Assembly: GCA_964016885.1 (NCBI GenBank)
Contig: OZ024744.1
Coordinates: 52,576,001-52,640,000 of the forward strand
Reading direction: 5' to 3'
Source of the DNA: Eledone cirrhosa
Lineage: Eukaryota
Length of the DNA: 64,000 bases
The first letter of the stretch is position 1. Every line of letters begins with the position of its first letter. This document shows positions 1 to 62,610 of this stretch, piece after piece. The position numbers and the translations under genes are program-made. Under the pieces are notes generated by a model. The model was not told the origin of the DNA. It ran no database searches and saw only the letters and a list, made by a program, of their open reading frames with translations.

Positions 1-1667
1 TGTATTTTGTTTTTGGAGGGGGAAGGAAGAGAATTGTTTCTTTTTTTGTTTCTTTTTTTACATTTTTCCTGATACCGTTTCCCACTCCTCGTCGTCACAA
101 TCTGTCTCCAGTTGCGATAAGCCGGGGAGTGGAAAATCCTCCACAGCCGTTGGTTTTGGTTGTGGCGTGGTGGATGTTGTAGGCGCTGTTGTTAGTTCTG
201 GCGCGTTGGGTGGTGGTGGTGTTGGTTTTGCAACTGTTGCTGGGGTTGTTGCTGTTACAGTTGCTTCTGTTGTTTCTGCCACAGTTGTTGCTGCCATCTC
301 TGTTGCTGGTGGTGTTGATGGTTGAGTCACTGGGGTGGGTAGGAGAGGTGGCCTCATCCTTTTAGCATGAGGGCAGAAAGCCCTTAGGTGGGTTCCTTCA
401 CCACAAACGACACACCTAGGCCTTCTGCCCTCGACAATTACGGTGAGGAGGCTGCCGTCAGTGAGGTCTATTACCTCTGGGATCTCCTCAATGCTTTTTT
501 GGTCCGCTTGGATCAGGAGCTCCATCCCAGATCCGGACCAGTTCTCCTGCTTTTCTTTCGCTATTTCTATTATCTTGGTGTTGGCTTCGATGCCGGTAAG
601 GACGGCAGATATTAGCCAGGGAATTTCGATGGCCGGTGGAACGTGGGTGACCCTGATCTTTACGAGTATCTGGCCACAATAGCTTGGGACGAGTGTGAAG
701 TCGTCACTTCTTAATGGGGCCATGGAGTGTTCTCTAGCCTCCTGTGGTGTTTCAAAGAACACGTCCACGGTTCCATACTTTTGCCCACGTCAGATGTGGG
801 GATTTTTGCCCACACATGTCCCAAAGCTTTTTGGATTTGGGACTCGGATGCCCGTCCCACTCGGCGTGACTTTATATTAATTGTTCGATAAGACACGGTG
901 CATAGGCGCCGATGCTCCATTTTATTAGGTGGGATGGGAGGCTGACCCTGTACCCATCTTTTTTACCATTTTTTTGGCTTCTTCTAATTCCTCCTGAGTT
1001 ACCTGAAATGCTTCGCACTGTTTTGCTACTCTGGCAAAACTCAGGGTGGTTTTCTTAATGTCATTGTTGCTGTTGTTATCGTTATATTTGTTATTATTAA
1101 TTTTAGTTTCAGTTGTGGTGGTGGTGGTGGTGGCGTCAGTGGTGTTCGGTGTGGAAGAGTTCATTTTGGTTGAATTCATTTCGATATCACGAGTTAATTT
1201 ATTTTTTTCTTTTGTTTCTGTTGTCGCGGTGGTGGTGCGGGTGCTGGTTGTCGCGGGGGTGGTGGTGGCGGCTTTAACACCTGCAGTTATTGGTAATGGC
1301 GGGATATGAATGTCTGCCTGAGACAAATTTAAAATATTGCTACTGCTTATATCGTTAGTGTTGGCAAACGTAGTAATATTTACAATGGTGGTGTCGGTGT
1401 GAGGTGTTAGTTTGTGAGGAAGGCTATCAGCTGCTTGGTGCAGAGGTGAATCAGCCATGATTTTTTCAAAGAAATTTTTGATAATCATAAATGTTTAAAT
1501 TTTGGGCACAAGGCCCCAATCTTTTTGGGTGTCCTTTTCGGAAAACAATGTATGTGCGCTTATATACAGGTAACAATAACAATTTTCCATAAATGGCAAT
1601 TTCTAACAAACGGAAACAACAAACCTTTGTTGAGCTCACGATGATACGATTTACTACGTAGGTCGCC
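1..1667 (-). mobile_element. L1/Tx1-clade non-LTR retrotransposon, 5' part (5'UTR + disrupted ORF1), runs off window start
   Basis: ORFs 925-1488 and 58-768 are homologous to ORF1 of the intact element at 52840-58865 (SFAxxAK, VPSYCGQ, VTHVPP, IPEVID, CVVCGEGTHLRAFC knuckle). The 5' end abuts (AAT)n at 1668. Confidence 0.85.
58..1488 (-). pseudogene. Tx1 ORF1 (gag-like nucleic-acid-binding protein, CX2CX4HX4C zinc knuckle), frameshifted
   Basis: Split into ORFs 925-1488, 711-920 and 58-768 that align in order to ORF1 at 56557-58654. Confidence 0.8.
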
Positions 1668-2283: not shown

Positions 2284-2302
2284 ATAATAAGAGTAATACT
2301 AA

Positions 2303-2490
2303 TTGTTTCTACTTTTGGCACAAGGCCAGCAATTTACCAGTGTATTACTGGTACTTTATTTTATCGACCCCATAAGGATGAAAGGCAAAGTTAAGCTCGG
2401 CGTGATTTGAACTCAGAATGGCAAGGCCGTAAATCTATGCGTCAAAGCATGGCGTCCGACTCTCTACCGATACTGCCAATCCACCTCCCT
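2303..2490 (-). mobile_element. tRNA-derived SINE, family 1 (central TTTGCCTTTCATCCTT..GGGGTCGATAAAATAA.GTACCAG core)
   Basis: A-box TGGCAGTATCGG and B-box GAGTTCAAATC on the minus strand. Tail GGCCTTGTGCCAAAAGTAGAAAC+ATT. Homologous to 12241-12427, 18978-19200 and 22500-22680. Confidence 0.88.
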
Positions 2491-2511: not shown

Positions 2512-2568
2512 TTGTTTCTACTTTAGGCACAAGGCCAGCAAAACCCAGTGCATTACTAGTACTTTATT

Positions 2569-2570
<2 letters not shown>
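2512..2570 (-). mobile_element. 5'-truncated 3' fragment of SINE family 1
   Basis: AAAATAAAGTACTAGTAATGCACTGGG..GCTGGCCTTGTGCCTAAAGTAGAAAC, flanked by (AAT)n on both sides. Confidence 0.8.

Positions 2571-2623
<53 letters not shown>
2571..2623 (+). repeat. (AAT)n microsatellite
   Basis: Perfect AAT run. Confidence 0.97.
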
Positions 2624-8477: not shown

Positions 8478-8501
8478 GATTTCTTTATTGGCTACAAGGC
8501 C
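8478..8501 (-). mobile_element. 24-bp abortive Tx1-type 3' terminus inserted in (AAT)n
   Basis: GGCCTTGTAGCCAATAAAGAAATC+(ATT)n on the minus strand, nearly the same as the adjacent Tx1 3' end at 8520. Confidence 0.75.
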
Positions 8502-8519
8502 AATAATAATAATAATAAT

Positions 8520-10598
8520 GATTTCTTTATTGGTCACAAGGGCTGACATCAAGAAAAACATTACAGAGGACACAGAATGGTACAGGATGATACAAAGTGG
8601 GTTTTGATTGTGTAAAAAGGTTATAATGCGAATATAGAAATGTGTAAAAAAAAATTAAAAAATTCAAACAACAAAAAATCCCCAATAGAAGGGAAACCTT
8701 TAGGGGTCACTCGTGGCGAAAACCACACAAAAGACCACGCCCACCCTGATCACTCAGTTCTCCCACTACTCAGTCTACAGGCGCATATTGAGAACGGCCC
8801 GTTTACTCTGACCAGACTCGCCACTTTCACCCACCTTCCAACAAACTTACTAGAAGGCAGCTCTTGCCCTCCACTGTGATTTTCCCCTTCAAGTGAAATT
8901 TGAAAAAGTTAATCAGGGATTCGCCAGAGAGGAAAGTGTCCGTCTTCAATCCTTTCAAACTTGTCCATCAGCCACGACATGACCACTCCTCCACGCAACG
9001 GGATATGACTGCAGATGGATCGTCTGACGATGGAAGCACGCCACTTCCACAAAAAGCGGAAGAGGAGGTGCTCCATTTTGGTCAGACTTGCGCCGGAGCA
9101 AAGCACGACGATCAGGAGGTAGCAGATGACCGATGCGATATACGGATTCACCACCTCCACCCGACCTTTCTGGGTCAGCTTCTTCCCAGCCCAATTTTGG
9201 GTGAGAGAGGCCACCCTGCCCGTCACATCGGTCCAATTTAACCGGTCCTTCAGTCCAGCACCACACGACGCTTTCGAATGGCATGGACCTGCCTCTCCAG
9301 GTGCTGACCTCCAAGTCCACCGACTTTTACTAGTTTAACTTTGCTCCTATCACCGCTTTGTATTCCTTGTGAGCGGTGCCGAGCATCTGGACGTGTTTGG
9401 TGCTCGACACCACCACGGTGACGGAGTCGGCGCAAGCTAATACGGATCTCTCACATCCCAATTCACGTGGGACGCCTCTTATCGCTTCCAATTTGTGTAG
9501 TAACGGCTCGAGGGCCAATACATACAAGCCAGACGAGAGGGAACAACCATGGCGGACCGAGCGCATGATGCTGAACGGCTGTGACGGGCGACCGTTCACC
9601 CTCACAACTCAGCAGATGTCGCTATGCATCGCAGCGATCCAACCGTTGATAACGGGCCCGAAATCGGCCGCCTCAAGAACCGCCGCCAGGTACCGAATGT
9701 CGACCCTATCAAATGCTTTAGATTTATCCTCAGGGCGCCACATGTGCCAGGTTCCTTAACTACCCTCTCTATGATGTATCCCATGAGGTGGAGGTTGTCG
9801 CGGATAGATCTGTCAGGAATGACGCATGTCTGCGCCTCTCTTACCATATTACCGACGAAAAGCGCCAATCTCGTTGCTAACCCCTTGGCCAAAATCTTGA
9901 AATCTCCTTTTAACAGAGTTATGGGCCTGAAGTTGTCTATAACGTACACCTTGTTCGGGTTTATTCTCAGCAGCGCCAGCGCTCCCCGGCTCACAAGACC
10001 GGGAATGCTCCCGTTCGGCCGCCAGTTGCGGTAGACATCTGCCAAGATATCGCCGAACAAGCCTGGCATGTACGCTTAAAGCTCGCAGGGCAGAGAATCC
10101 AAATCTGGCTATTTACCTCTCTGGCTATCAGACATCGCTTCCCGTATTTCACCTGCTGTTATCGGCTTTTCGCAACACTGCGCTGCGATCGTCGAGAGCC
10201 GCGGCAGTCCGTCGAGGTATGCACCCGAGTCCATACTCCGATCTGGCCCACCACTGAGCAAATTGTTGCTGAAAAGGCTCACACATTTTTCTCGGGTTCG
10301 TTTTGGTCAGACAAAGACCGAATTGTGGCCCATTAGACAGCTTTCCTTCCCTCATGTCTCAGAGCACGCGCTCTAGCTCTGACAACGCAGCCTTTATGCT
10401 TTGCGTTGAAGAATTGGTCGAGTGTCAATCTCGCCGCAAACACGCCGGTTGTGATGCCTGTACTAAACGCCTCTTCTAGCTTTCTAACTAGCTCTGTCTC
10501 TACTCTATTTTATTCTATCACTACTCCTTTGCTAAACCTTATCGATTCTACTCTAATTGCCCTTTTCAGGGTAAACTATCACCTGTTGTTGACGATCG
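8520..10598 (-). mobile_element. Decayed L1/Tx1 element, 5'-truncated ORF2 remnant + 3'UTR
   Basis: ORFs 9602-10069, 9330-9605 and 8909-9226 align to the RT region of 53102-56521 (NFRPITLL, SVRHGCSLS, KGRVEVVNPYIASVICY). 3' end is AATAAAGAAATC(ATT)n. Confidence 0.9.
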
Positions 10599-12240: not shown

Positions 12241-12427
12241 AAGGGCGGTGAATTGGCAGTATCGGTAGAGGGTCGGACGCCATGCTTTCCAGCATAGTTA
12301 GGTCCCTTTACGATCTGAGTTCAAATCCCGCCGAGGTTGACTTTGCCTTTCATCCTTACGGGGTCGATAAAATAAAGTACCAGTAATGCACTGGGTCTTT
12401 GCTGGCCTTGTGCCTAAAGTAGAAACA
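12241..12427 (+). mobile_element. tRNA-derived SINE family 1, full length, with 18-bp TSD
   Basis: A/B boxes and core present. TSD ATTATTTCTGGGTCAAAC at 12219-12236 and 12428-12445. Confidence 0.92.
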
Positions 12428-12523
12428 ATTATTTCTGGGTCAAACCTTGTCGTTCGATAAAAAACTGACTTGAAATGAATGCCATGAGATAACATTGTAA
12501 AGTCAGGCAAAACAATAATATTT

Positions 12524-20557: not shown

Positions 20558-20806
<249 letters not shown>

Positions 20807-20883
20807 CATATATACATATATACACACATTGCCTACATACATATGTACCTACATACCTATATACCTACAAACATACATATATA

Positions 20884-21145: not shown

Positions 21146-21953
21146 ATATAGATGCACGCATACATACATATATACATCCATACACAAATACATATGTATA
21201 TACATATATACTTACACACATATACACACATATATAAATGTAGATGCATATATACGTACGAACATACATATATTTATACATGTATACATATATGCATGCA
21301 TATACATGTAGATGTATATACATACATATATACATACATGGTGGCTGTCAACTCGTTTTCGAGTACGGCCACTACTTATATCCATGTAGGAAAACCCCTA
21401 CCGATGCGCTGAACGAGTGTGACTTTTAGTCCAGCCAGCAACTTGAAAACTCTGGTACAAACACTACACTTGTGACAATTATTGACACATAGTGCTGGGC
21501 CCATGGTACCATGTGACCACAAGTGCAGAGAGATCTCCAGATATAAAGCAATGCCTGTGCTATGAAGCTTTTATAGTGAGCAAAGGCACTGCACAAAGCC
21601 AATCCCACTCTCTTAACCAAGATGATATTTACCAAAAAGTAGAACAAGTCAACATCATTGGATACCATCAGGGTTTCAGGTGTTATATCAGAGTTTTGCT
21701 TCTCCTAGAATTCTGTCTTGACAAAGGCTAAGGGGTCATCTCTCCCGGTGATTTTGGATGGCCATTGACTCTTAAGAGCTCCTTTGCCCTTTGACAGGTT
21801 TTGTTTTTAGTCCTGCAGGATGTCCATACATACATACACACAAACATACATACATACCTACATATATACATACATTCATATGTACACACATACATACATA
21901 CATATATGCATACACACATACATACGCACATACATACATATATGGATAAATAC

Positions 21954-22037
<84 letters not shown>

Positions 22038-22204
22038 GCATACAGACATACATAAAGCTGAGAAAGGTATATTTTCATAGTATTGGATATCAAACAAAGT
22101 ATTATCTGCTCAGCAAACGATCAACACTGATTAATGTATGGATACCAAAGTCTATTTATCTATGAATCGGATAAATTAGTTTGAGAAGTGCATACACAAT
22201 GCGA

Positions 22205-22430
22205 CACGGTGAACCTCCGTCGGTTGCGATCGATGACGAGCTTTCGATTTGTTCTATCAACAGAACATTCAGTTCATGAAATTATGGTGTGTTTGTTTGA
22301 GCATTTGTCAACGTAATATTTTCGGGTAGATTTAGCCTGACACAGGGTGGGACATGGCTGCCTTTTCAGTTAGAGATACATTCCATCCGAAGGGCTTCCT
22401 GACAGCTTCTGTCTACCCGGTTTCACTCAA
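22205..22430 (+). mobile_element. Decayed interspersed repeat fragments (SINE body/RTE-like tail)
   Basis: GAAATTA.GGTG..TGAGCA segment is similar to the reverse complement of 16828-16865. Family assignment is from memory of cephalopod SINEs only. Confidence 0.35.
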
Positions 22431-22499
22431 TATGCTGCGTCAGAAGGCTAAGCAACATACACAATTATATACATCATTGTGATTTCATGAGATTATTAC

Positions 22500-22680
22500 G
22501 GTGAATTGGCAGTATCGGAAGAGGGTTGGACGCCATGCTTTCCATAAGAGTTACGTCCCTTTACGGTCTCAGTTCAAATACCGTCTAGGTTCACTTTGCC
22601 TTTCATCCGTACGGGGTCGATAAAATAAAGTACCAGTAATGCACTAGGTAATTGCTGGCCTTGTGCCAAAAGTATAAACA
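22500..22680 (+). mobile_element. tRNA-derived SINE family 1 with 8-bp TSD
   Basis: A/B boxes, core and tail GGCCTTGTGCCAAAAGTATAAAC. ATTATTAC at 22492-22499 and 22681-22688. Confidence 0.88.
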
Positions 22681-23622
22681 ATTATTACATAGATGCATAC
22701 ACATAGAGATATATACACACCGGCAGATAACACATGTGTATACACATGTACACATACACACGCACATTATATATACTCTACTATGCATTGAGTACCTTAC
22801 TTACTGTGGTTACTCCCGATTGAACCCGGAATACACACACACGCACATACACACACACATACACACATACATATATAAATACATACACGTACAAACACAA
22901 CAAACAAGAACATATGTGTACACAATGGCACATACACACACACTTATACATACATATACACCCATCTCTACACACTCCCACAAACAACACGTACATGAAG
23001 GCGCCCTCACACTGTTATAAATATACATGAACACACATGCACATACACACATCCCCTATAATAACTATACACAAACATACACGCATAAACAACATACATA
23101 ACCACACACACACCCACACAAACTAGCGCACACACACACCCACACGTACTCACACAGACACACACATATACTCTTATAACTATTCACAAAACGCACGCGC
23201 CGGCACGCCGTCACCCGCCTGCCAGACCGAGGAGACCGCCCGTCCGCCTGCCCGCCGGTTAGCACACGCAAATATATAGAAGCAAAAATAGCAAAAACAG
23301 CAACAACAGCAAGAAAACCGACAAACAAACTTAAAATAAAAGCTAACAACCAAAACAAAACAACTTCAAATAACAGTGGAAGTTGTGTCCACATATAAAG
23401 CATACAATCTTGAATATATTTAAATATACTCGACAAGCATATAGAAACAATACATGGTATGTATAATTTATGAGTCTTTATTGAATATATATACGAAAGT
23501 TTGTATTATACAAATATGCACATATAATTTTACACATAATTACACAATCTGAATTATGTACATATGTACATATTTGAATACCTAGCAAAAACACTTAACA
23601 AACTTCACACACACACACATAA

Positions 23623-46999: not shown

Positions 47000-49250
47000 G
47001 CCTATTCTAAATAAGGCCATGTTGGGGAAGGAATGGAGTAAGTGAGAAAAGATCACCTACCTTGATCGTGTGGGAAAGGGACAGTCGTACTGTCCCTTTG
47101 GCTGGTCATGAGTGTCTCCAAGATAATGTTGTCGTACATCCTCTTGGTAACCGACCCTGTGAAGTCTCCAACTACGTTGGGGAATTTTTCTTTTAAATGT
47201 ATATAATGTTCTATTTTAATTTCAATAATGTTTATATTTTTTGGTAATTTTTTGGTAGTGTTGGTAGGGTGTAGTAATTTTTGTCTGTAATGTCTGTGTG
47301 CTGCTCTATATGTTCTAGGAGTTCTTTATTTGCCATGTTTATGGCTGTGTAATGTTTTTCTTTTTTTTGGGGGGGGGGGGGATGCTGCTGTTTTCTTGTT
47401 GCTGTTGGGTGTGTGTGTGCTTTGCTGTGTTTGCTATGTTGCTGTTTTTGATGATGCTGGTGGTGGTGGTTGTTGTTGGTGGTGATGTTTGTGGTGGTGA
47501 TGGTGATGCTGGTGGTGTTGCTGCAAGTCTCCTTGCAGCCTTTACGCCTCTTTGTTTGCCTTCCCTTTTGGAGGATGAAGCTAATGGTTTTTTTCTTTTT
47601 TCTTTTTTGTTTGTGGCAGACCGTTTGCCACCTCCCTCCCGCCTCATACTCCATGTCGGATTCTGTGGCGTCTGGGAGGGATATGAGCTCCACTGCTGCT
47701 GCTGCTGCTGCTGGTAGTGGAGCCTACTGCGGCGATTTTGCCGCCGGTATAGCTACTGCGACTGTTGGTGTTGCCGCCACTGCTGCCGCTGTTTTAGTTG
47801 TCCGTGGCCTTGGTATGGGTGCCACGGACGTTGCCCTCCTACTCAGCGTGGAAGTGTCTTCTGCCTTTTCTGCTCTTGGTAGCAGCGGATCAGGTGTCGA
47901 AAGGAGAGGACCCTTCTGCCCACAGAGATAGCACTTTGGGCGCCTTACTTCCACGCTTATAAGGAATTGGAGTCGTTCCTCGAGGTCTATGACATCTGGG
48001 ATGGCCTCAATGCACTCCTGGTCAGTCTGTATTAGCATTTGCATGCCTATTCCTAACCAGTTCTCTCTTCCCATTCGCTGTATTTGCAGTATGGTGGTCT
48101 TCTCCTCGATTCCAGCCAATACAGACGCGGAGAGCCAAGAGATGGGCACGTCGGGCGGGACCTGGGTCACTTTGACCCTCACAATTTCTTCCCGCAGTAG
48201 GAGGGCACCAAGAATATCTTTTCACTCTTTACCGTTTCCAAAGAGTGAGATTTTGCCTCTTGGGGTGTAGCGAAAAGTACGTCTACTGTGGCATACTTTC
48301 TGCCTCGGGTGATTTGGGTTTTGCGCGCCCAGACGCACCGCAAGGCCTTTTGGATTTGAGCCTCTGTCGATCACTCCACCCGATCTGACATTTTGCTTAC
48401 GGTGCGGTAAGTCACCGTGCGCAGCTGCTGGTCTTTGAAGAAATAGGGTGGAGGTTTCAGGGAAACTCTATTGTCATTTCTTGACACCATGGCTCTTGCG
48501 ACTGCCATCTCCTCCTCTGTGTCTAGCACTGTCACTATATTTCGGGCCACACCTGCGAAAGAAGTGGTCCCCTTTTTCAGCGGCACCATTATTGCTGCCG
48601 CTACTGCTGCTACTGCTGCCACTGCTGCTACTACTGCTACTACTGGTCTTGTTGTTGGTGCTGTTGCTGTTGCTACTGCTACAAACGGTATTGTTGGTGT
48701 TGTTGCCGTTATCACTGTTGTAGTTGGTTGTGTTTTTGGTGCAACTCTTGTTGTTTTCGGTGGAACTTGTAGTGTTGCTGTTGGTGTTGTCGTTGTTTAT
48801 TTTCTTGTTATTGGTATTAATATCGTTGTTGCATTTGTTGTCATTTTTTCTGTTGTCTGTATTTTAGTTGTCGCTGTTATTGTTGTAGGTGTGGTAATAT
48901 TTTTAAAATTAGTGTTCTCAGTTTTGTTGTGCTTGTTCACGTTGTTTGTGGTGGTGTTTGTTGTATGAATTTCACTAACCCTCCTCTCAACTTTTACGTC
49001 GTTGTCACACGACAGCAGACATAATGCTGAGGTACGTGGCTCAGTCATGTTTTTTATTTTTTTATTTTTAGAAAAAGTAAAATATTTAAATATTTGGGCC
49101 AAAAGGCCCAAATATTATACTTTCTCCTTCACAGAGCAAAGTCCAATGGCTTATATCCCTTACACAACAAGAAGAATTTAACAACAAATAATTATAATAG
49201 GTAAATCAAGCGAATTACTGTTAGCGGACAAAATGACGTCCAAACAGACC
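47000..49250 (-). mobile_element. L1/Tx1 element, 5' half: 5'UTR, disrupted ORF1 and first ~7 codons of ORF2, 3'-truncated
   Basis: ORFs 48797-49111, 48371-48715, 47724-48182 and 47232-47693 are homologous to ORF1. ATGGCCTTATTTAGAATAGGC (MALFRIG) at 47020 is the ORF2 start equivalent. The 5' end abuts (AAT)7 at 49251. Confidence 0.85.
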
Positions 49251-49271: not shown

Positions 49272-52200
49272 GAAATCAGCAGTGGTGATGAAATCACCGG
49301 TCGTTATGTAACCATATATTCACCAATCCTCGATATGAGTGTTTAAATGTCGAACCTAAACAGTTCGAATAAGGGTGAAAAGGAGACTGGAACGTCATGT
49401 GAAAGACTCTCACCCAGCATGTGCTCCCTGGCCCAACAGGAGGGACCTGGCTATCATCCAAATACTGCTGGTGTTGGATGAAGAAGAAGACCAACTAGAC
49501 GAAAGAATTGAATAGAACTGTCATGAAATGTTACCCGAAGAGTAACCCCATGGAAACGGATGCATAACATCTGGAACGAGATTGGTCTATTTAAATTAGA
49601 TGAACAAAAATTGGCCGAGCAGGCTCGGGTAATAAGAACTTGTGGATGGAGTTGGAACTGGAGGAACTGAACAGAGAGATTAAGTCGGAAATGGAGAGTG
49701 GAGTATGTCAGGCAAATGAGCCAGTGGGAAATGAAGGTGGAGAGGTTGAGAGACCTGAGGAAGCATCCGAAGCAGACAATGATCTGAATGCTGAAATAAA
49801 TAACATCTGGAACAAAGATACGGCCATTGAGGAAACGAATCCTGACGGGCTAGGGCAAGATTTGGTTGATATCCTGAACTTAGTGGTAGATGAAATGAAT
49901 AATGATAGTGGAAAACCTATGAACCTAAGATTTGTATATAGGAAAAAGTTAAAAGAAACAACAGCTAAGGTAAACAAAGTCATCCCATACCTTGAGGCGA
50001 GGAACCTTTACCAATACAACAATATCCTCAAAGCAACCGCAAATGCGGTGAGTAAATTACTTGGCATATAAATGAGAGGAAAGAACAAACAAGAAAGATC
50101 AGAATCTTGGTGGAAGAAACAACTGAATGGTCAAATCAAGGAAATGAGAAAAGATATTGGAAAGCTTGAGCCCTTACTTACATTACAAAACAGACGCTAA
50201 AGATAGATTGAAAATAAAATACAAAACTAAGAGGAAAGAGCTAAATGATATCATAGAGGAACTGAAGCAATGCATTGTAGCAAAAAGTGCAAAGATTAGG
50301 CGGTATGAGAACAGAATCAGTCAGTATAGACAGAACCGCATGTTTGACAACAACCAGAAGATGTTTGAACAGCTTGAAGGGAAAGAAAGAGGCAACGACT
50401 TGATCCCTGAGGCGGAACAGACTAAGACATTCTGGAGAGGTATATGGGAGCAGGATGTTGAGTCTAATAGTCAGGCAGTGTGGATTGAAACATTTCAAAA
50501 GGGGATTAGTGAACAAGCACACCAACAACCTGATTTTAGTATCACAGTTGAAACTCTTAAAGGGCAGACTAAAAACTAACCAACTGGAAAAACCAGGCCC
50601 AGATGGTGTGCAAGGGTATTGGATTAAAAATATAACATCCCTCCACCCGAAACTGAAAACCATGTTTAATGACTGCTTGATGTCGGTTGAAGTACCAGTG
50701 TGGTTGACAAAATGTACCACAGTTCTGGTAATGAAAGTTCGAATCAAGAGTAATGATGTTACCAACTATAGGCCTATCACATGTCTGTCCGTAATGTGGA
50801 AACTGTTGACAAGCATTATGTCTGAGGAAATCCACCATCACCTCCACATAAACAACAGAAAGGATGCCGAAGGAAGTCCCGTGGTACAAAGGACCAGCTA
50901 CTTATTGATAAGATGGTAATGAGGAATTGCAAGAGGAGACACACTGGTCTTGCCATGGGATGGATAGACTACAAAAAGGCATTTGACATGGTGCCTCATT
51001 CTTGGATCACCAAAAGCCTAGAGATCTTCAAGGTGGCAGATAACATCAGACAGTTGTTGAGAAAAAGTATGAAGTCCTGGAAAACAGAGTTAACATCGGC
51101 TGGAGAATCCTTGGGAGGCGTGAAGATCAAGAGAGGTATCATCCAGGGAGATAGTCTGTGCCCTCTGTTGTTTGTCCTTGCCCTGATGCCCCTGACCACT
51201 ATACTGCGAAAAGTGAAATACAAGTTGGGAAAGGGAGAGTTTACCATCAATCACCTCCTCTTCATGGACGATCTTAAGCTCTTCGGGAAGAGTGAGAAGG
51301 AGTTGGATGTGCTTGTTGACACTGTCCGTATTTTCAGCAATGATATATGTATGCAATTTGGTATTAGTAAGTGTGGAGTCCTTGTGATGAAGAGGGGTAA
51401 ATTGAGCAGAAGCAACGGAATCCAGGTACCAACAGGTGAGATGATAAAGGAAATTGACACTGAAGAAGGATACAAGTATTTGGGTGTTCTGGAGGCTGAT
51501 GACAACAAGAACAAAAAAATGAAGGAATTGATAAGATCTGAATACATTCGGAGAGTAGGGAGCGTATTAAAGTCACATCTGAACAGTAGGAATGCCATAA
51601 GTGCAGTAAATTCCCGAGCTGTGTCTATTATTAGGTACAGTGCGGGAATTCTGAGATGGAATGTTGCTGAACAAAAAGAAATGGATAGGAAGACTAGGAA
51701 GCTATTGACTATCTACAACATGATCCACAAGAGGAGTGATGTCGATAGACTCTACTTAAGGAGATCTGAAGGTGGAAGAGGTCTTAGCATAGAGGACTGT
51801 GTTCAGATGGAGAAAAGCAACCTTCACAAATACGTGACTGATAGTAAGGAGCCAATGCTCAAAACTGTAGTGAAGGAGAGGACTATAGACCAAGGGATGT
51901 CCAAGGAGGAAATAACAACAAGCAGAAAGAGCAGCCTTCAGGAAAAATCCCTTCATAGTACCTTCTTTGAGCAAACTGAATTCAGAGATCCACAGACATG
52001 GAACTGGTTGAAAAGAGGAGACCTTAAAAAGGCTACAGAAGGAATGTTAATGGCTGCGCAAGAGCAGGCCCTCAAAACAAAGTGGCTGAAACACCATATT
52101 TACAAGGAGGAGGCTAGCCCACTGTGTAGGATCTGTGGAGAGAGAGAGAGGAGACTGTGGCTCACATTGTATCCGAGTGTAAACACCTAGCCCAGACTCA

Positions 52201-52775
52201 CTGTAAAAGCTGGGGACATGAGATGATGGGCAGGGTGATCCACTGGTACCTATGCAAAGTAAACAATTGACCACATTCAGAGAAGTTGTATGAGCATAAG
52301 CCAGAGTCGGTGATAGAACACGATCAGGTGAAGGTGCTATTGTATTTTAGGATAAAGACGGACAAGAAACTGGAACACAATAGATCTGACCAGGTGGTTT
52401 TGGACAAGGAAAAAAGATCGTGCCTGATTGTGGATGTAGCCTGCACATTCGACACGAGAGTGCAAGAAAAGGAGAGGGAGAAAATTAACCGATATCAGGA
52501 TTTTAAGTGGGAGTTAAAAACTATTTGGAACTGCCATGAAGTCAAAGTCGTCCCGATTGTCATAGGAGCACTAGGTACTATCTCAAAGAGTTTCCAAGGA
52601 TGGTTAAAGAAGATTGGTGTAGCCCCGCTTTTTGGAACACTTCAAAAGGCAAGCTTGCTGGGAACAGCAAGAACCCTCCGATACGTCCTGAATATCTGAG
52701 GCTGCAGGTAGTGGCTTGATATTCATTTCAACAAACTTTCGAGTTAAATAACATCAATGAGTGAGACTCAAAGAA
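49272..52775 (+). mobile_element. R4/Dong element, near full length, second subfamily, multiply frameshifted (copy D)
   Basis: ORF pieces 49640-52699 with PGPDG, NYRPITCL, DYKKAFD, QGDSL, FMDD, YKYLG, GGRGL, CRICGE, and RLE (RSD..D..C.FD..EK..RY). (AAT)n on both sides. Confidence 0.92.
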
Positions 52776-52783
52776 CAACAACA

Positions 52784-52829
<46 letters not shown>

Positions 52830-52839
52830 TAATAATAAT
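52776..52839 (+). repeat. (AAC)/(AAT)n between tail-to-tail Dong and Tx1
   Basis: Direct reading. Confidence 0.95.
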
Positions 52840-53101
52840 GATTTCTTTATTAACCACAAGGGTTTACATAAAGTAGACATTAAGGACAGTGCAGGACAAT
52901 GCAGGACGGTACAAATGGGCATTTCTGCGTGTAAAAAAACAAAAACAGAGGATGTAACAAAAATAACAATGAAAATAACAATGAAAAATTCCCCAATAGG
53001 GGGGAGACTTCGGAGGGACATTTGTGGAGAAAGCCCAGTAAAAAGCCACAATGACCCTGACCACCAAGGCAAGTGCCCTCTCCCAGTTTTCCACCTTTAG
53101 T

Positions 53102-56100
53102 TTACAGATATATACTCAGAGTCGGCCCATTCACTCGGGCCATTCTTGCTTCTCTCACCCATCTTTCAACAAAATGCTGGGAAGAGAGCACTTCCTTCTC
53201 TACTCTGATTTTCCTTTTCAAATGAAATTTGAAAAAGTCAATCAGAGCATCACCGAAGAGGTAAGTGCTCGTCTTCAGCCCTTTCAAACGTGTCCACCAT
53301 ACTATCTCTTTCGCCATGGCCACCAGACAGATAAAAACTGCCTGCCCTTCCCGGCTAAAGGAGGAGGGCGGGGCAATCCTCACGATAGACTCAGATGATA
53401 GCTGGATCCGTCCTAAACGCGACAGCAGGTGTTCGACATAAACCCACAAGTCAGCAATTTTCGGACACTGGACGAGTGCGTGCAGGACGGTTTCGTCGCC
53501 CTGCGCGCATCTCGGACATGCCCGGCTGACGGCACCTCCATGCCTGTAGAGTTTATCCCGAACTGGCAAGGCTCCTCGGTAGCACTGCCAGGCCAGAGAT
53601 TTCTGGAAGTTGTCCATAGGCCCTGGCCCGAAAGTTCTTCCGAAGAGATTGGCTAGTTGATTTTCGTCGACGCCTAGAGTTTCCCCAAGTACGTCGTCGC
53701 TCTTCCCCTCCACTAATCCTCTATAGAACGCCGAGGTGGAGTTTCCACCGATCACATTGCCCGATTGGCCGAGGGCTGTGAGCGCCTGAAGACATTCCAG
53801 TCTCCAGGCGCTCCCTCTCGGTCTTCGCTTGACCCAGGACTGCAGCTCCGTCAAGGAAACGAGCTGGGGAAAAACGCGTCTAGCAAACGGCGACCACACC
53901 TGATCACCGTCGAGGAAGAGGTGGAGATGTCGTAGCCTGAGCGCGTGCCTGCGCATCATCAGCCACGGCATGCCCAGCCCTCCACGTAGCGGGTGTTGAC
54001 AACAGATGGACCGCCTGACCATCGGAGCACGTCCCTTCCACAAAAAGCGAAAGAGCAAACGCTCCAGCGCAGTCAGGCGAGGCTTAGGACAAGGTACGAC
54101 GGTTAGGCGGTAGCAGATGACAGACGCGATGTACGCGTTAGCCACCTCCGCTCGACCTTTCAGGGATAGCTTCCTCTCCGCCCATTTCTGGGTGAGAGAA
54201 GCCACCCTGCTCGTCACCTCGTCCCAGTTTTTGTCCGTCTGGAGGTCCGGACCGAACCAGACCCCTAGCAATTTAACCGGTCCGTCCGTCCAGCGCCCGA
54301 CGACGCTGTTGGACGGCATGGACCTGCCTCTCCAGGTGCCGAGCTGCAGGCCCACTGACTTTTCCTGGTTGATCATTGCTCCTGTCACCGCTTCGTATTC
54401 TCTTAGTGTAGTGCCGATCGCCTCGATGTGTTTGGCGTTCGACACCACTACGGTGACATCGTCGGCATATGCTGACACGGATCTTCCGCATCCTAGTTCG
54501 CGCGGGACTCCCCTCAACGTCTCCAGTTTGTGCAGTAATGGCTCGAGAGTCAATACGTACAAGAGGGACGAGAGGGGACATCCTTGGCGGACCGAGCGCA
54601 TGATGTTGAACGGTTCCGACAGGTGACCGTTCACTCTCACCACAGAGCAGATGTCGCTGTGCATGGCAGCGATCCAGCCTCTGAAGACGGGCCCAAAGCC
54701 AGCCGCCCTCAGGACTGCCGCTAGGTAACGATGGTCGACCCTATCGAAAGCTTTCGACTGATCTAAATTGATCAAGGACCCACCCGTGCCAGGTTCCCTA
54801 GCTACCCTCTCTACGATGTATCGCATGAGGTGGAGGTTGTCGTGGATGGATCTGTCGGGAATGGCGCATGTCTGCGCCTCTCCCACCAGACCACCAACGA
54901 CAAGCGCCAACCTCTTTGCTAGCACCTTGGCCAAAATCTTAAACTCTGTGTTTAGCAGAGTTATGGGCCGGAAATTGTCTATGTTATCCCCCTTGTTCGG
55001 ATCCTTTCTCAGCAGTGCCACCGCTCCTCGGCTCACAGAACTGGGAATTCTCCCGTTCTGTTGCCAGTTGCAGTAGACGTCCGCCAAGAGGCCTCCGAAC
55101 AAGTCTGGCATCTGTACGTAAAGTTCATAGGGCAGACCATCCAAACCAGGCGATTTACCCCTTGTGCAGCCAGTCATTGCCTCCCGTACTTCAGCGGCTG
55201 TTATCGGCTTTTCGCAACACCTCGCCTCAGTGGCCGAGAGCCGCGGCAGCCCGTCGAGGTAGACACTAAAGTCCATCCCTCTACCCGGCCCCCCGCTGCC
55301 CCCGAACAGCTGAGCGAAGTGTCGCTGAAAAGCTTCACACATTTGCCCGGGATCGAGTAGCATGCGCCCGTCGTGGTCCACCAAAGACCGGATCGTGGCT
55401 TTGTTGCCACGACGCGCCTCCGCCACTCGGGCCCATTGAACGGCTTTCGTCCCCTCGTGTCTGAGAGCACGCACCCTAGCTCTGACAACGCAGCCTTCGT
55501 GCTTTGCATTGAAGAATTGGTCAAGGGCCAATTTCGCCGCAAGCACGTCGGTCGCAATGCCTTTGCTAAGCGCCTCGTCTAATTTTCTAACTAGTTCTCC
55601 CTCTGCTCTATTTTTCTCTATTGCTAAAGCCTTACTAAACCTAATCGATTCTATTCTAATCGCTCTTTTCAGAGCAAACCACCACTTGTTGTTGACGATG
55701 GCCCCCGTCAACGCCCGCTTAACTAGTTCGCTAATCCGGTCTCTGTAGGCCTTGCGCGCTGGTAAGGACGCGTTTAGCTTCCAGTAGCCGGGTCCTCGTC
55801 TATGAAGCCTATCTAAGTCAAGCACACAGATCACGAATTTGTGGTCCGTGTAGCTGACTATCTTGAATTGTGGACAGCCTATGCTAGACCTATCTATTTC
55901 CCTACAAAATACTCTATCTAGATATGATCTGGATGACCCTATGCGATTTGTCCAAGTCCACATTGGCACATTCGGGAAATCCAATCGGTACCTGTCAGAC
56001 AGTTCAAAACGCCTGAGCAGGTTGGTGAGGCTCTTGCACCCTCCACCCCTATCCGCTAATCCCACACAGTCCCAGCGTGCATCTAAGATCCCGTTCCAGT

Positions 56101-56521
56101 CGCCCACTAACACTAAAGAGCGGGACGTTCCAAGAAAGGTCTCCAGACGCCGGAAGAAATCAGGCCGCCCTGCTCCTGTCGGGGCATAGACAGCCACTAG
56201 CCTGAAAGCTTGCCCGTCTCCGCTGGTCACGTCCAGCACCACCAGCTTACCCTCTGGGTCCAGGAAGATGGCCCGTATGGCGAGATCCAAACCTCTCCGA
56301 AAAAGCACAGCAACTCCTCCACCCGATCCAGGACGGCTGGGAGATGCGTACACATCGTAGCCGCCGAAGATCGGTACGAAGGCCCGTGCTTCGGAGATTC
56401 TGGTCTCGCTGATGGCCACTACATCTATGTTTAGTGACCTGAGGTCGTTGAGCAGGTGACCCTGCTTCCATGACGACCCCAAGCCACGCGCATTTATGCT
56501 GCCTGTTCTGAGTGAGGTCAT
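53102..56521 (-). CDS. Tx1/L1 ORF2p: APE endonuclease + reverse transcriptase + C-terminal CCHC (1139 aa, intact)
   Basis: APE motifs GSINARG, VAISET, VYAP, GDWN, LDRV, TDH. RT motifs KSPGLDG, FRPITLLN, DQSKAFD, QGCPLS, YADD. CPRC..ETVLHALVQC. Confidence 0.96.
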   Translation of the reverse strand: MTSLRTGSINARGLGSSWKQGHLLNDLRSLNIDVVAISETRISEARAFVPIFGGYDVYASPSRPGSGGGVAVLFRRGLDLAIRAIFLDPEGKLVVLDVTSGDGQAFRLVAVYAPTGAGRPDFFRRLETFLGTSRSLVLVGDWNGILDARWDCVGLADRGGGCKSLTNLLRRFELSDRYRLDFPNVPMWTWTNRIGSSRSYLDRVFCREIDRSSIGCPQFKIVSYTDHKFVICVLDLDRLHRRGPGYWKLNASLPARKAYRDRISELVKRALTGAIVNNKWWFALKRAIRIESIRFSKALAIEKNRAEGELVRKLDEALSKGIATDVLAAKLALDQFFNAKHEGCVVRARVRALRHEGTKAVQWARVAEARRGNKATIRSLVDHDGRMLLDPGQMCEAFQRHFAQLFGGSGGPGRGMDFSVYLDGLPRLSATEARCCEKPITAAEVREAMTGCTRGKSPGLDGLPYELYVQMPDLFGGLLADVYCNWQQNGRIPSSVSRGAVALLRKDPNKGDNIDNFRPITLLNTEFKILAKVLAKRLALVVGGLVGEAQTCAIPDRSIHDNLHLMRYIVERVAREPGTGGSLINLDQSKAFDRVDHRYLAAVLRAAGFGPVFRGWIAAMHSDICSVVRVNGHLSEPFNIMRSVRQGCPLSSLLYVLTLEPLLHKLETLRGVPRELGCGRSVSAYADDVTVVVSNAKHIEAIGTTLREYEAVTGAMINQEKSVGLQLGTWRGRSMPSNSVVGRWTDGPVKLLGVWFGPDLQTDKNWDEVTSRVASLTQKWAERKLSLKGRAEVANAYIASVICYRLTVVPCPKPRLTALERLLFRFLWKGRAPMVRRSICCQHPLRGGLGMPWLMMRRHALRLRHLHLFLDGDQVWSPFARRVFPQLVSLTELQSWVKRRPRGSAWRLECLQALTALGQSGNVIGGNSTSAFYRGLVEGKSDDVLGETLGVDENQLANLFGRTFGPGPMDNFQKSLAWQCYRGALPVRDKLYRHGGAVSRACPRCAQGDETVLHALVQCPKIADLWVYVEHLLSRLGRIQLSSESIVRIAPPSSFSREGQAVFICLVAMAKEIVWWTRLKGLKTSTYLFGDALIDFFKFHLKRKIRVEKEVLSSQHFVERWVREARMARVNGPTLSIYL

Positions 56522-56556
56522 GTTTAAAATAGAGTGGAAAAGATGGGAAAGACCAC

Positions 56557-58654
56557 TTACCGTACTTTTGGTAGAGGAGGGATGGTTTTTACATCCCTTT
56601 TCACTTGATCGTCTGGTGAAGGGACCGTTGAATCGTCCCTTCGGCTGGTCGTCGGCTCTTCTAAGAGAATGTCTGAGTATACTCTTCGATTGATGGTTCC
56701 TCCTAGGTCCCTGAAATCACCAACTGCGTTGGGGAATTTCGTTTTAATGTTTGTGTATTGTTTCTGTGCTATTTTTAGCAGTCTTATGTTAGTTGGCGTT
56801 TTGATTGGTGCTGGTATTATGTAGTCCTGTTGTGAAATGTCTGTGTGTTCAATTATGTAAGTCATTAGTTTCTTGTTGTGTGTATTTATTGCCGTGCATT
56901 TGTTTTTCTGGGGGTGGGGTGTGGTTCTGCTATTTTCTTGTCGTTGTTGCTGGGTCTGTGTGTTTTGTTGTTGTGTTTGCGATGTTGGTGCTTGTGGTGG
57001 TGGTGTTGAAGGTGTTGTTGGCGGTGGGGTTGTCGCCGGTGGTGATGGTGGTGCTAGTGTGGGTGGTGATGGTGTTGGTGTTGTTGCTGCTGTGGGTCTC
57101 TTTGCAGTAGACTTTACCCTTTTCTCATTTCTTTCCTCCCTTTTCAAAGGCGACGATGCGCTGCTTCTGCGTTTGTGCCTTCTTGCGACCTTTTGCCATC
57201 CCTCTCCCACCTCACACTCCATGTCTGATTCTGTGAGGTCGGGGAGGGGTACCAGCTCCACTCTTTCACTTGTTGTTGTTGGTGATGTTTGCACTGGAGT
57301 CTCTGTTGCAGCTGCATTTGGTATTGCTGTTGTTGTTGTTAATATTTCCACTGCTGCTGCTGTCTTTGATTTCCGTGGAGTGGGTATGGGTGCCACGGAC
57401 CTATCGTTCCTGGTTGCCGCTTGTCCTGTTGCTGGTAGCCGTGGAGCCGGATTCGGAAGGAGGGGGGTTTTCTCCTTTCTCAGGGTCTTCTCGTTGCAGA
57501 AGGCCCTGAGGTGAGTCTTCGATCCACAGCGAAAGCATTTCGGGCGTTTGCCCTCAACACTTATGGGCAGTTGAGTGCCGTTATCGAAGTCTATCACATC
57601 CGGGATAGCTTCGATGCACTCCTGGTTGGTTTGGATTAGCATCTCAATGGAGGAGCCGACCCAATCTTCTCTTACTTTTTTCTGTACTTGCAGTACAGTT
57701 GTTTTGTCCTCGATTCCGACGAGGACAGACGCGGCCAGCCAAGAAGGGGTCATTCCGGGGGGGGACGTGGGTCAGTTTGACCCTCACAATTTTTTGCCCG
57801 CAGTAGGAGGGCACCAACACCATTTCCTCGCTCCTTAGGGTCACTACTGATTGGGCCTTTGCCTCCTGGGGTGTGGCAAAAAGTACGTCTACGGTGGCGT
57901 ATTTTTTGCCTCGGGTGATGTGCGTTTTCCTCTGCCACACAGACCCCAAGGCTTTTTGTATTTGGGCCTCTGTGGCTCTTTCCACCCTACGGGATTTTGT
58001 ACTTACTGTACGGTACGTGACCGTACAGTGCTCTTGGGTTTCGAAAAAATTTTTCGCTGCCTTGCAGATTGCTCGGTGTCCGTTCTTTGTCACCATCTTC
58101 TTCGCTTCCTCTAATTCCTCATTTGTTATGAGGATTGTTTCCAGGTTTTTCGCAATACCTGCAAATGAGATTGGTTTTTCTCTGCTGTTGTTGTTGTCGT
58201 CAGAGCTGCTGGTACTTTTGTTGTTGCTGCAGGTACTACGACTACTGCCTCCGCCGCTGTTGCTGTGGTTGTTGTTGGTGTTGCTGCTGCTAATGCTGTT
58301 GTTGTTTATGCTGCTGGTGATGCTGTTGCGGCTGCTACTGTTGTTTTCATTGTCACTGTTGCTGTTGTTATTACGGCTGCTACTGCTATTATTCCTGACG
58401 TCAGACGAATGAACTGGGTTTTCGTATTTCCCGCACACCTGTTTCGTCGCTGTCGTCGTCGTCGTGGAGAAACCTTGCACGCTTTGCACGAGACTTTTCT
58501 TTTCTTTCGTCGCTTGCGAAAGAGAAGGGAGGGAGAGAGACACATTTAAAGAAGGGAGGGAGAGAGACAATCTTCTCTCTGCTGTAGTGATGATTGAGGA
58601 AGAAGAAGACGGAATGAGTGGGAGTGACGTATGAAATTTCTTTTTCGTAGCCAT
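56557..58654 (-). CDS. Tx1 ORF1p (~698 aa if restored), interrupted by one extra C in a C8 run at 57757-57764
   Basis: ORFs 57644-58654 and 56557-57753 join as ..THVPP-GMTPSWL.. after removing one base. CFRCGSKTHLRAFC knuckle. Asn/Ser- and Pro/Thr-rich linkers. Confidence 0.85.
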
Positions 58655-58700
58655 GTTTTTTGTTTAAAATGAAATTTTGGGTACAAAACCCCAATAACTG

Positions 58701-58728
58701 GTTATTTAACCCCGAAGGGCCAAATAAC
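58701..58728 (-). promoter_or_regulatory. 12-bp hairpin with C(UUCG)G tetraloop in the Tx1 5'UTR
   Basis: Sense sequence GTTATTTGGCCC-TTCG-GGGTTAAATAAC. Confidence 0.65.
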
Positions 58729-58865
58729 GGACACAAAGACCCCTCTCACGAGGAGGAGGGTGTCTTTATCAACAATTTGGTTCAAGTTTTAAACAATTTA
58801 CAATTCTTTTAACGGTTAAAAATTACTATACTTACAGAGCCGAGCCTCCGTCAACCATGGCATTC

Positions 58866-58892
58866 AATAATAATAATAATAATAATAATAAT
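58866..58892 (+). repeat. (AAT)9 spacer between tandem Tx1 copies
   Basis: Direct reading. Confidence 0.97.
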
Positions 58893-59155
58893 GATTTCTT
58901 TATTAACCACAAGGGTTTACATAAAGTAGACATTAAGGACAGTGCAGGACAATGCAGGACGGTACAAATGGGCATTTCTGCGTGTAAAAAAAACAAAAAT
59001 AGAGGATGTAACAAAAATAACAATGAAAATAACAATGAAAAATTCCCCAATAGGGGGGAGACTTCGGAGGGACATTTGTGGAGAAAGCCCAGTAAAAAGC
59101 CACAATGACCCTGACCACCAAGGCAAGTGCCCTCTCCCAGTTTTCCACCTTTAGT

Positions 59156-62100
59156 TTACAGATATATACTCAGAGTCGGCCCATTCACTCGGGCCATTCT
59201 TGCTTCTCTCACCCATCTTTCAACAAAATGCTGGGAAGAGAGCACTTCCTTCTCTACTCTGATTTTCCTTTTCAAATGAAATTTGAAAAAGTCAATCAGA
59301 GCATCACCGAAGAGGTAAGTGCTCGTCTTCAGCCCTTTCAAACGTGTCCACCATACTATCTCTTTCGCCATGGCCACCAGACAGATAAAAACTGCCTGCC
59401 CTTCCCGGCTAAAGGAGGAGGGCGGGGCAATCCTCACGATAGACTCAGATGATAGCTGGATCCGTCCTAAACGCGACAGCAGGTGTTCGACATAAACCCA
59501 CAAGTCAGCAATTTTCGGACACTGGACGAGTGCGTGCAGGACGGTTTCGTCGCCCTGCGCGCATCTCGGACATGCCCGGCTGACGGCACCTCCATGCCTG
59601 TAGAGTTTATCCCGAACTGGCAAGGCTCCTCGGTAGCACTGCCAGGCCAGAGATTTCTGGAAGTTGTCCATAGGCCCTGGCCCGAAAGTTCTTCCGAAGA
59701 GATTGGCTAGTTGATTTTCGTCGACGCCTAGAGTTTCCCCAAGTACGTCGTCGCTCTTCCCCTCCACTAATCCTCTATAGAACGCCGAGGTGGAGTTTCC
59801 ACCGATCACATTGCCCGATTGGTCGAGGGCTGTGAGCGCCTGAAGACATTCCAGTCTCCAGGCGCTCCCTCTCGGTCTTCGCTTGACCCAGGACTGCAGC
59901 TCCGTCAAGGAAACGAGCTGGGGAAAAACGCGTCTAGCAAACGGCGACCACACCTGATCACCGTCGAGGAAGAGGTGGAGATGTCGTAGCCTGAGCGCGT
60001 GCCTGCGCATCATCAGCCACGGCATGCCCAGCCCTCCACGTAGCGGGTGTTGACAACAGATGGACCGCCTGACCATCGGAGCACGTCCCTTCCACAAAAA
60101 GCGAAAGAGCAAACGCTCCAGCGCAGTCAGGCGAGGCTTAGGACAAGGTACGACGGTTAGGCGGTAGCAGATGACAGACGCGATGTACGCGTTAGCCACC
60201 TCCGCTCGACCTTTCAGGGATAGCTTCCTCTCCGCCCATTTCTGGGTGAGAGAAGCCACCCTGCTCGTCACCTCGTCCCAGTTTTTGTCCGTCTGGAGGT
60301 CCGGACCGAACCAGACCCCTAGCAATTTAACCGGTCCGTCCGTCCAGCGCCCGACGACGCTGTTGGACGGCATGGACCTGCCTCTCCAGGTGCCGAGCTG
60401 CAGGCCCACTGACTTTTCCTGGTTGATCATTGCTCCTGTCACCGCTTCGTATTCTCTTAGTGTAGTGCCGATCGCCTCGATGTGTTTGGCGTTCGACACC
60501 ACTACGGTGACATCGTCCGCATATGCTGACACGGATCTTCCGCATCCTAGTTCGCGCGGGACTCCCCTCAACGTCTCCAGTTTGTGCAGTAATGGCTCGA
60601 GAGTCAATACGTACAAGAGGGACGAGAGGGGACATCCTTGGCGGACCGAGCGCATGATGTTGAACGGTTCCGACAGGTGACCGTTCACTCTCACCACAGA
60701 GCAGATGTCGCTGTGCATGGCAGCGATCCAGCCTCTGAAGACGGGCCCAAAGCCAGCCGCCCTCAGGACTGCCGCTAGGTAACGATGGTCGACCCTATCG
60801 AAAGCTTTCGACTGATCTAAATTGATCAAGGACCCACCCGTGCCAGGTTCCCTAGCTACCCTCTCTACGATGTATCGCATGAGGTGGAGGTTGTCGTGGA
60901 TGGATCTGTCGGGAATGGCGCATGTCTGCGCCTCTCCCACCAGACCACCAACGACAAGCGCCAACCTCTTTGCTAGCACCTTGGCCAAAATCTTAAACTC
61001 TGTGTTTAGCAGAGTTATGGGCCGGAAATTGTCTATGTTATCCCCCTTGTTCGGATCCTTTCTCAGCAGTGCCACCGCTCCTCGGCTCACAGAACTGGGA
61101 ATTCTCCCGTTCTGTTGCCAGTTGCAGTAGACGTCCGCCAAGAGGCCTCCGAACAAGTCTGGCATCTGTACGTAAAGTTCATAGGGCAGACCATCCAAAC
61201 CAGGCGATTTACCCCTTGTGCAGCCAGTCATTGCCTCCCTTACTTCAGCGGCTGTTATCGGCTTTTCGCAACACTTCGCCTCAGTGGCCGAGAGCCGCGG
61301 CAGTCCGTCGAGGTAGACACTAAAGTCCATCCCTCTACCCGGCCCCCCGCTGCCCCCGAAACGCTGAGCGAAGTGTCGCTGAAAAGCTTCACACATTTGC
61401 CCGGGATCGAGTAGCATGCGCCCGTCGTGGTCCACCAAAGACCGGATCGTGGCTTTGTTGCCACGACGCGCCTCCGCCACTCGGGCCCATTGAACGGCTT
61501 TCGTCCCCTCGTGTCTGAGAGCACGCACCCTAGCTCTGACAACGCAGCCTTCGTGCTTTGCATTGAAGAATTGGTCAAGGGCCAATTTCGCCGCAAGCAC
61601 GTCGGTCGCAATGCCTTTGCTAAGCGCCTCGTCTAATTTTCTAACTAGTTCTCCCTCTGCTCTATTTTTCTCTATTGCTAAAGCCTTACTAAACCTAATC
61701 GATTCTATTCTAATCGCTCTTTTCAGAGCAAACCACCACTTGTTGTTGACGATGGCCCCCGTCAACGCCCGCTTAACTAGTTCGCTAATCCGGTCTCTGT
61801 AGGCCTTGCGCGCTGGTAAGGACGCGTTTAGCTTCCAGTAGCCGGGTCCTCGTCTATGAAGCCTATCTAAGTCAAGCACACAGATCACGAATTTGTGGTC
61901 CGTGTAGCTGACTATCTTGAATTGTGGACAGCCTATGCTAGACCTATCTATTTCCCTACAAAATACTCTATCTAGATATGATCTGGATGACCCTATGCGA
62001 TTTGTCCAAGTCCACATTGGCACATTCGGGAAATCCAATCGGTACCTGTCAGACAGTTCAAAACGCCTGAGCAGGTTGGTGAGGCTCTTGCACCCTCCAC

Positions 62101-62575: not shown

Positions 62576-62610
62576 GTTTAAAATAGAGTGGAAAAGATGG
62601 GAAAGACCAC

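Follow-up and report, generated by a model that had tools for sequence, protein, structure and literature searches.

Does a Tx1 long interspersed element (LINE) carry the same RNA hairpin at both of its ends, or two hairpins with separate roles? The question is raised by a 64,000-nt stretch of the Eledone cirrhosa genome (contig OZ024744.1, positions 52,576,001-52,640,000; hereafter the window), in which an original prediction read one hairpin with a YUUGU loop at the 3′ end of the Tx1 RNA, in the tail of a short interspersed element (SINE), and in the 5′ untranslated region (5′UTR) just upstream of ORF1. Hairpins are present at all four positions named (52852-52864, 58679-58691, 1504-1516, and 49089-49116), on the minus strand, which is the sense strand of the elements. 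After following them through the 3.0-Gb genome, we consider it probable that the 3′ hairpin common to Tx1 and the SINE is a recognition site for the ORF2 protein (ORF2p), and that the hairpin before ORF1 is a separate 5′UTR structure, with a conserved stem and a free loop, that likely acts in translation or RNA handling. The lasting result is thus a likely stringent Tx1-SINE pair together with a conserved 5′UTR layout, while the evidence for the most part does not bear out the proposal that both ends carry one signal.

The LINEs that bear the hairpin encode an ORF2 with an AP endonuclease, a reverse transcriptase (RT), and a C-terminal zinc motif (Pfam Exo_endo_phos, RVT_1, and zf-RVT), with a separate ORF1 upstream. 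The presumed placement in the Tx1 clade goes by named RT matches: the closest is an Argonauta protein (73%), and an Alligator "transposon TX1" protein stands at 41%. Our sample, which is non-random, consists of the best matches of the ORF1 searches plus 200 kb around the window, and the family letters used below (A, old-A, B1, B2, C, D, E, F, G, and H) are labels coined in this analysis. The Tx1 family is large (~18,000-23,500 first-look ORF1 candidates per query in the genome) and includes intact copies; families A and E are very young, with 150 of 150 listed matches identical over the ORF1 query. In most copies examined, the 5′ and 3′ ends adjoin (ATT)n, (CTT)n, or (ATCT)n runs.

To characterize the 3′ end, we anchored the elements on the ORF2 C-terminus rather than on the hairpin motif itself; overlapping loci were incompletely removed, and the counts were made by hand from the resulting table. 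A microsatellite tail follows in 105 of 111 Tx1 ends and a poly(A)-like hexamer is found in 99 of 111. Among these 99 hexamer-bearing ends, 88 have a C-Y-N-G-U loop, and 73 combine that loop with three Watson-Crick pairs. The order is a hairpin with a 3-bp stem, then the poly(A)-signal hexamer, and then the microsatellite tail. In the first family A copy of the window, the hairpin (52852..52864, minus strand) has a 4-bp stem and a CUUGU loop and scores 42.9 bits with a covariance model of the 3′ ends; it is followed by the hexamer and a GAAA block (52840..52851, minus), predicted to pair partially with a U-rich run upstream, and by the (ATT)n tail and target microsatellite (52785..52839, minus). 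The same model finds the hairpin of the upstream tandem copy (58905..58917, minus) and the 3′ end, decayed and present in duplicate, of an older Tx1 copy (8480..8554, minus); ten LINE and SINE ends in the window score 16.8-42.9 bits, nine of them at 23 or more. Across the genome, the 3′-end pattern of families A and B is found 7,988 times and its reversed control pattern 0 times. The same pattern counts show that the final loop base is U in 7,988 copies, whereas 78 others have a scatter of A, C, and G. Full-length elements have a C-Y-N-G-U loop at the 3′ end regardless of the type of 5′UTR, save for a few decayed copies and mis-anchored rows (mostly type D). The claim that the loop is mostly kept thus stands for the 3′ end.

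The same tail ends a SINE of ~180-210 nt. Its head is judged tRNA-type by eye, with A- and B-box-like words also found by eye; ARAGORN found no tRNA. As proposed, tails with this loop occur in the window, and the 3′ model locates four of them: a SINE at 2301..2489 (minus; tail hairpin 2316-2328), a 5′-truncated copy at 2512..2571 (minus; 2526-2536), a copy with an 18-bp target-site duplication at 12241..12433 (plus; 12404-12414), and one at 22500..22687 (plus; 22656-22668). The SINE tail is the Tx1 tail with the middle stem pair swapped, and 11 LINE and 3 SINE variants align without gaps over 33 columns at 77% mean column identity. Within this alignment, three of the four pairs show changes on both sides, a score reached by 0 of 500 shuffles, so that the compensatory changes described for the 3′ stem are confirmed. 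The ATT tail of the SINE runs in the same sense as that of Tx1, and direct repeats of at least 8 nt, mostly beginning with ATT, flank 30 of 42 SINE copies. An older SINE variant retains a hexamer-like word; otherwise, the SINE keeps the hairpin without the canonical hexamer. These features point to a 3′ stem-loop of the stringent-LINE kind and make a stringent Tx1-SINE partnership likely. Dong-like elements, which neighbor the SINE, were rejected as its tail partner because their TAA ends run in the opposite sense and lack the 3′ hairpin. An identity with MetaSINEs was also set aside: by eye, the SINE core is unlike the BivaMeta and BivaMD sequences in the supplement of PMC4824008, with the core words missing at the homologous place (comparison sources, consulted in excerpt: PMC4758252 and PMC4824008).

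Predicted folds agree with the 3′ hairpin. RNAalifold yields the 3-bp hairpin unprompted from the 3′ ends, and in local folds its predicted pair probabilities are 0.65-0.98 in six of six valid cases. In the LINE folds, it is predicted to stand on a lower stem, in which the U-run pairs with the hexamer.

To examine the hairpin before ORF1, we compared 5′UTRs from 162 copies. These fall into 20 types, five of them single-copy; type F ends before the second hairpin, leaving 19. The UTRs are ~205-230 nt long and have a common order: a start block, a splice-donor-like word, an AU-rich stretch, hairpin H1, hairpin H2, and an AU-rich leader. This two-hairpin layout is held at fixed distances throughout the 19 types, with the H2 loop starting at +142 to +160 (169 in one type with a duplication). 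The H2 stem covaries: over 17 types, with loop anchors placed by eye, 127 of 136 cells are paired versus 92 with shuffled arms, and none of 5,000 shuffles does as well; the counts are loop-anchored because MAFFT left the 5′ hairpins out of register. A covarying hairpin upstream of ORF1, with compensatory changes of its own, is thus confirmed separately from the one at the 3′ end. Its stems form a stepwise series at the same position, from C-run to G-run types, with fixed G-U intermediates in A, old-A, D, and G copies. Its loop, by contrast with the constant loop at the 3′ end, is free: we find UUUA, CUCA, UGU, ACA, AGU, CAAA, UGUA, AUUA, UUUAC, UUUU, UUA, UUCG, CUUGA, and CUUGU. Among loci L149, L146, L130, and L133, UGU alternates with its reverse complement ACA, the pattern that hairpin-loop inversion would be expected to leave.

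Placed on this layout, the three 5′ hairpins that had been taken for counterparts are only partly so. In family B1 (5′UTR at 1459..1667, minus, by sequence comparison), H2 is the hairpin at 1504..1516 (minus), with a CUUGU loop that reads CUUGA in older B2 copies. In family C (5′UTR at 49049..49250, minus, likewise by comparison), it is the predicted 12-bp hairpin with a UUUU loop at 49089..49116 (minus). The 5′UTR of family A (58655..58865, minus; 211 nt, folding z = -4.5) comes immediately after the (ATT)n tail that ends the next tandem copy and has a predicted H1 at 58731..58764 (minus). Its positional counterpart to the 1504 and 49089 hairpins is a 12-bp H2 with a UUCG loop at 58701..58728 (minus), and the hairpin at 58679..58691 (minus), drawn with a UUUGU loop, is an extra third one, for which a shifted register with an 8-nt loop is predicted.

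How common, then, is the 3′ loop at the 5′ end? A YUUGU loop closed by a G+C stem occurs in only 3 of the 19 UTR types (A, old-A, and B1), and 16 of 19, including the young family E, lack it; with UUUU at 49089 as well, conservation of the loop fails at the 5′ end. Elsewhere in the UTRs, weak, mostly A-U stems close a YUUGU in G3b (6/6), G3 (3/6), B2 (1/9), and C (1/17), so the word arises easily in these UTRs. For the pentaloop drawn at 58679, the closing pair is predicted at a probability of only 0.08-0.10 in 14 of 14 A copies, and the drawn pairs of the B1 pentaloop are predicted at 0.00-0.97, with a median near 0.25. The family B hairpin is numerous in the genome, its pattern counting 2,203 against 0 for the reversed control; with 7,988 against 0 at the 3′ end, neither hairpin is due to chance. 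Among the first 100 B copies listed, a hand count gives CUUGU in 61 and CUUGA in 39. From 20 + 20 copies drawn from about the first half of the B listing, the CUUGA group (B2) is the older, with a pairwise distance of 0.097 in the UTR and 0.063 in the endonuclease, and the CUUGU group (B1) is a young clade within it (0.038 and 0.015), in agreement with the ORF1 tree. The CUUGU loop of family B is, by these sequence distances, a recent change in the young offshoot B1. The covariance model of the 3′ ends gives the B1 5′ hairpin 17.6 bits (E 0.28) and has no match at 58679 or 49089.

The covariation in the original prediction thus holds at each end separately, and the view of the 5′ hairpin as a second copy of the 3′ loop signal is not supported. 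Because it belongs to a separate structure with a freely varying loop, it is likely not the same signal as the 3′ hairpin, and a stem that is kept around a free loop suggests a role for its shape, likely in ORF1 translation or in ribonucleoprotein (RNP) assembly. An R2-like motif at both ends is not conserved across the active families: the loop differs in 16 of 19 types and the 3′ model misses A and C. Neither circularization nor translational autoregulation gains support here, and two identical hairpins would not be expected to pair with each other.

A number of points weigh against this assignment of recognition to the 3′ end and of a separate structure to the 5′ end. At the 3′ end, the covariation comes down to some two independent events, of which the A/B lineage and the SINE account for one each, and 8 of 14 variants do not form the fourth pair. 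Taken by itself, the hairpin has little stability (-1.0 to -1.8 kcal/mol). The 3′UTR as a whole is no more stable than its shuffles (z = 0.17), with the hairpin in the centroid and absent from the minimum-energy fold. The RTE and CR1 3′ ends were not recovered for comparison with the SINE tail, so the SINE may have another partner LINE, and among 24 examined of 129 matches none was a LINE whose stem has the polarity found in the SINE. At the 5′ end, besides the anchoring of H2 by eye, its cells include five G-U against three A-C, which, together with the fixed wobble intermediates, favor RNA over DNA only weakly. Finally, both young ATT-targeting lineages (A and B1) have YUUGU at the 5′ end, B1 acquired its CUUGU loop as it expanded, and an alignment of the B1 UTR to the SINE tail matches at 29 of 40 positions, which keeps convergence and tail capture in play.

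Convergence would mean that, in the young families A and B1, the 5′ hairpin has come to resemble the 3′ loop and binds a second ORF2p, which represses translation or aids full-length insertion, as in R2 (precedent in the excerpted PMC6895275). The YUUGU hairpin is indeed present in all 14 A copies, both old-A copies, and 24 of 25 B1 copies, its last U was gained in the young B1 offshoot, and the B1 hairpin is the one that the 3′ model scores. On the other hand, the young family E is among the 16 types without the loop, B2 spread while carrying CUUGA (39 of the 100 listed), the first base of the A loop is U, a position held by C in the 3′ loop, the pentaloops as drawn are predicted to form seldom in A and at a low median in B1, and the A and C hairpins go unmatched. 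Moreover, B1 and B2 differ at ~10% of UTR sites, so a single matching change in B1 is unremarkable. We therefore regard this explanation as unlikely, and it is just as doubtful that a mimic of the 3′ loop bound by ORF2p arose shortly before ORF1 twice, once in each of the two youngest Tx1 lineages that target ATT. If true, such a mimic would let an AP-endonuclease LINE hold its RNA at both ends in the manner of R2, which would favor insertion of full-length copies or dampen translation of the element itself, and it could be part of the reason for the recent expansion of A and B1.

Capture would instead make the resemblance a matter of ancestry without shared function, the last hairpin and leader of B (perhaps also of A, C, and H) having been acquired from the tail of a SINE or LINE, through template switching or a nested insertion, while the 5′UTR was being replaced. 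The 29 matched positions of B1 are followed by an ATT-like run (p = 0.003, the floor of 300 shuffles), only B1 and B2 of the 20 types fall at or below 0.02, 5′UTR swaps are frequent, and the elements insert into one another's tails. The test, however, is post hoc among 80 comparisons, and the H2 stems form their C-run to G-run series at one position. In addition, the older B2 resembles the SINE less closely than its young offshoot B1 does (34 and 30 against 38 and 44), the opposite of what capture predicts, which weakens it; we think such an origin quite improbable. Least probable, and by a clear measure unlikely, is a role in DNA, in which the 5′ palindromes would belong to an internal Pol II promoter, or form cruciforms at a set distance from the start, and the 3′ motif would chiefly be a polyadenylation element: the hairpin positions fixed from +1, the reverse-complementary UGU and ACA loops of G1 and G5, the similar sense and antisense folding energies of several types, and the hexamer after the LINE 3′ hairpin fit it, whereas the C-run/G-run stem flips, which a sequence-specific factor presumably should not tolerate, the fixed G-U intermediates, and a SINE that has the hairpin without the canonical hexamer speak against it.

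We propose, by analogy with L2 LINEs, that ORF2p binds the C-Y-N-G-U loop of the Tx1 3′ end and that target-primed reverse transcription would then begin on the microsatellite tail; the SINE would borrow this machinery in trans. In zebrafish L2 LINEs, specificity is carried by the loop and the stem is exchangeable (PMC4176376, in excerpt). We also suggest, more tentatively, that H1 and H2 fold as RNA and that their shape may set ORF1 initiation or RNP assembly. The YUUGU loops of A and B1 could then have arisen by chance, as a U-rich loop drifted on a stem of G+C pairs.

The Tx1-SINE pair resembles the eel UnaL2/UnaSINE and the zebrafish ZfL2-1 and ZfL2-2 systems, as described in the part of PMC4176376 consulted, in its fixed loop, exchangeable stem, short-repeat tail, and tRNA-type SINE. 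It differs from those L2 pairs in its Tx1/L1-type ORF2, its 3-bp core stem, and the poly(A)-signal hexamer after the hairpin. Within the L1 clade, LINE1-1_ZM with ZmSINE2/3 and L1-1_CR with SINEX-3_CR likewise share a hairpin tail with compensatory changes (PMC3747384 and PMC3472496, both in excerpt); unlike the present pair, these plant and algal systems are described there with poly(A) ends and no microsatellite targeting. Only three SINEs with L1-clade tails are reported among >800 L1-clade families in the sections consulted of these articles (Ohshima), all from plants or algae, and the table of 58 LINE/SINE pairs in PMC3747384 has no Tx1 family and no mollusc. From the Tx1 clade itself, Kibi at (TC)n, Koshi at (TTC)n, and the crocodilian Tx1-Mar with SINEU also combine repeat targets with a SINE inferred to be moved by Tx1 (PMC4494074, in excerpt). 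The present elements instead insert at (ATT)n, (CTT)n, and (ATCT)n, and the SINEU link is argued in that account from target, age, and shared 5′ heads rather than from a common 3′ hairpin. R2Bm has 5′ and 3′ protein-binding motifs, with one protein on both RNA ends, and is a restriction-like endonuclease element (PMC6895275, same excerpt); the Tx1 ends, in contrast, have no loop conserved across families at both. The octopus repeat descriptions in the portions of PMC13282606 and PMC8967140 consulted include L1-Tx1, Dong-R4, RTE, and CR1 and do not describe this pairing. We found no published report of a Tx1-SINE hairpin pair or of two-end hairpins in Tx1, although Repbase/Dfam or Ohshima and Okada 1994 may describe the SINE. 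If the partnership is real, it would place in an animal a stringent LINE of the L1/Tx1 clade together with a SINE that shares its tail. It would also inform the question whether the L1 clade started out with strict 3′ recognition, and would make Tx1 the likely motor of an abundant octopod SINE. A separate feature is the fixed layout of two hairpins in the 5′UTR, which has outlasted repeated UTR swaps.

Outside E. cirrhosa, the metagenome query P0018 returned no relatives, and an alignment query gave 69 distant loci, mostly at 22-33% identity; a Tx1-type 3′ hairpin and tail were unseen by eye in 11 of these distant loci, several of which are incomplete. Rfam, run on six loci, had no match at gathering level. 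On one metagenome contig (L293:5815-5977), a U2 snRNA sequence (96 bits) lies ~1 kb downstream of a distant Tx1-like element, a possible link to the U2-targeting Keno family.

The UTRs also hold possible splice signals. A donor-like word, retained in genomic copies, lies at +24 to +34 in most types (at +31 in family A: 58830..58835, minus), and acceptor-like ends follow ~75-95 nt on, just before H1. A search for genomic copies spliced at the donor-like motif gave 0 matches for family E, and of 23 family A matches read, 20 show small local changes at the motif and none is an intron-sized deletion; this check covers the first of two possible A donors and acceptors not starting with G. Three contig runs contained no splice joints, which has no bearing on expression. 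A second donor-like word stands at the ORF1 stop (near 56560, minus), and the copy at locus L058 has a pyrimidine run between that word and the ORF2 start.

In the family A copy, ORF2 spans 53105..56521 (minus; AP endonuclease, reverse transcriptase, and zf-RVT by domain search) and ORF1 56560..58654 (minus). The tandem A copies of the window are 99.8% identical and have in common an ORF1 frameshift near 57770; in most other copies, ~713 aa are open. Head-to-tail arrays with a period of ~6.05 kb occur in the window (52813-64000) and at 441115539-441140171 of genome contig C1, where an element has inserted into its own (ATT)n tail. Exchange of 5′ parts is seen between families: A and B have a common ORF2 (92-95%) and 3′ end, yet ~50% ORF1 identity and unalignable UTRs, and C and D combine sister ORF1s with unrelated UTRs. 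Copies of ATT-targeting families are also located in (CTT)n runs (loci L007 and L165), and the L165 copy has a CTT tail, which suggests that the tail is shaped by the target. Elements that are Dong/R4-like, a name taken from motif reading, lie at 2624-8470 and 49300-52800 (plus), in the same microsatellite on the opposite strand and interleaved with the Tx1 copies. A 20-kb satellite with a 30-bp unit and a strong strand skew occupies 25219-45281.

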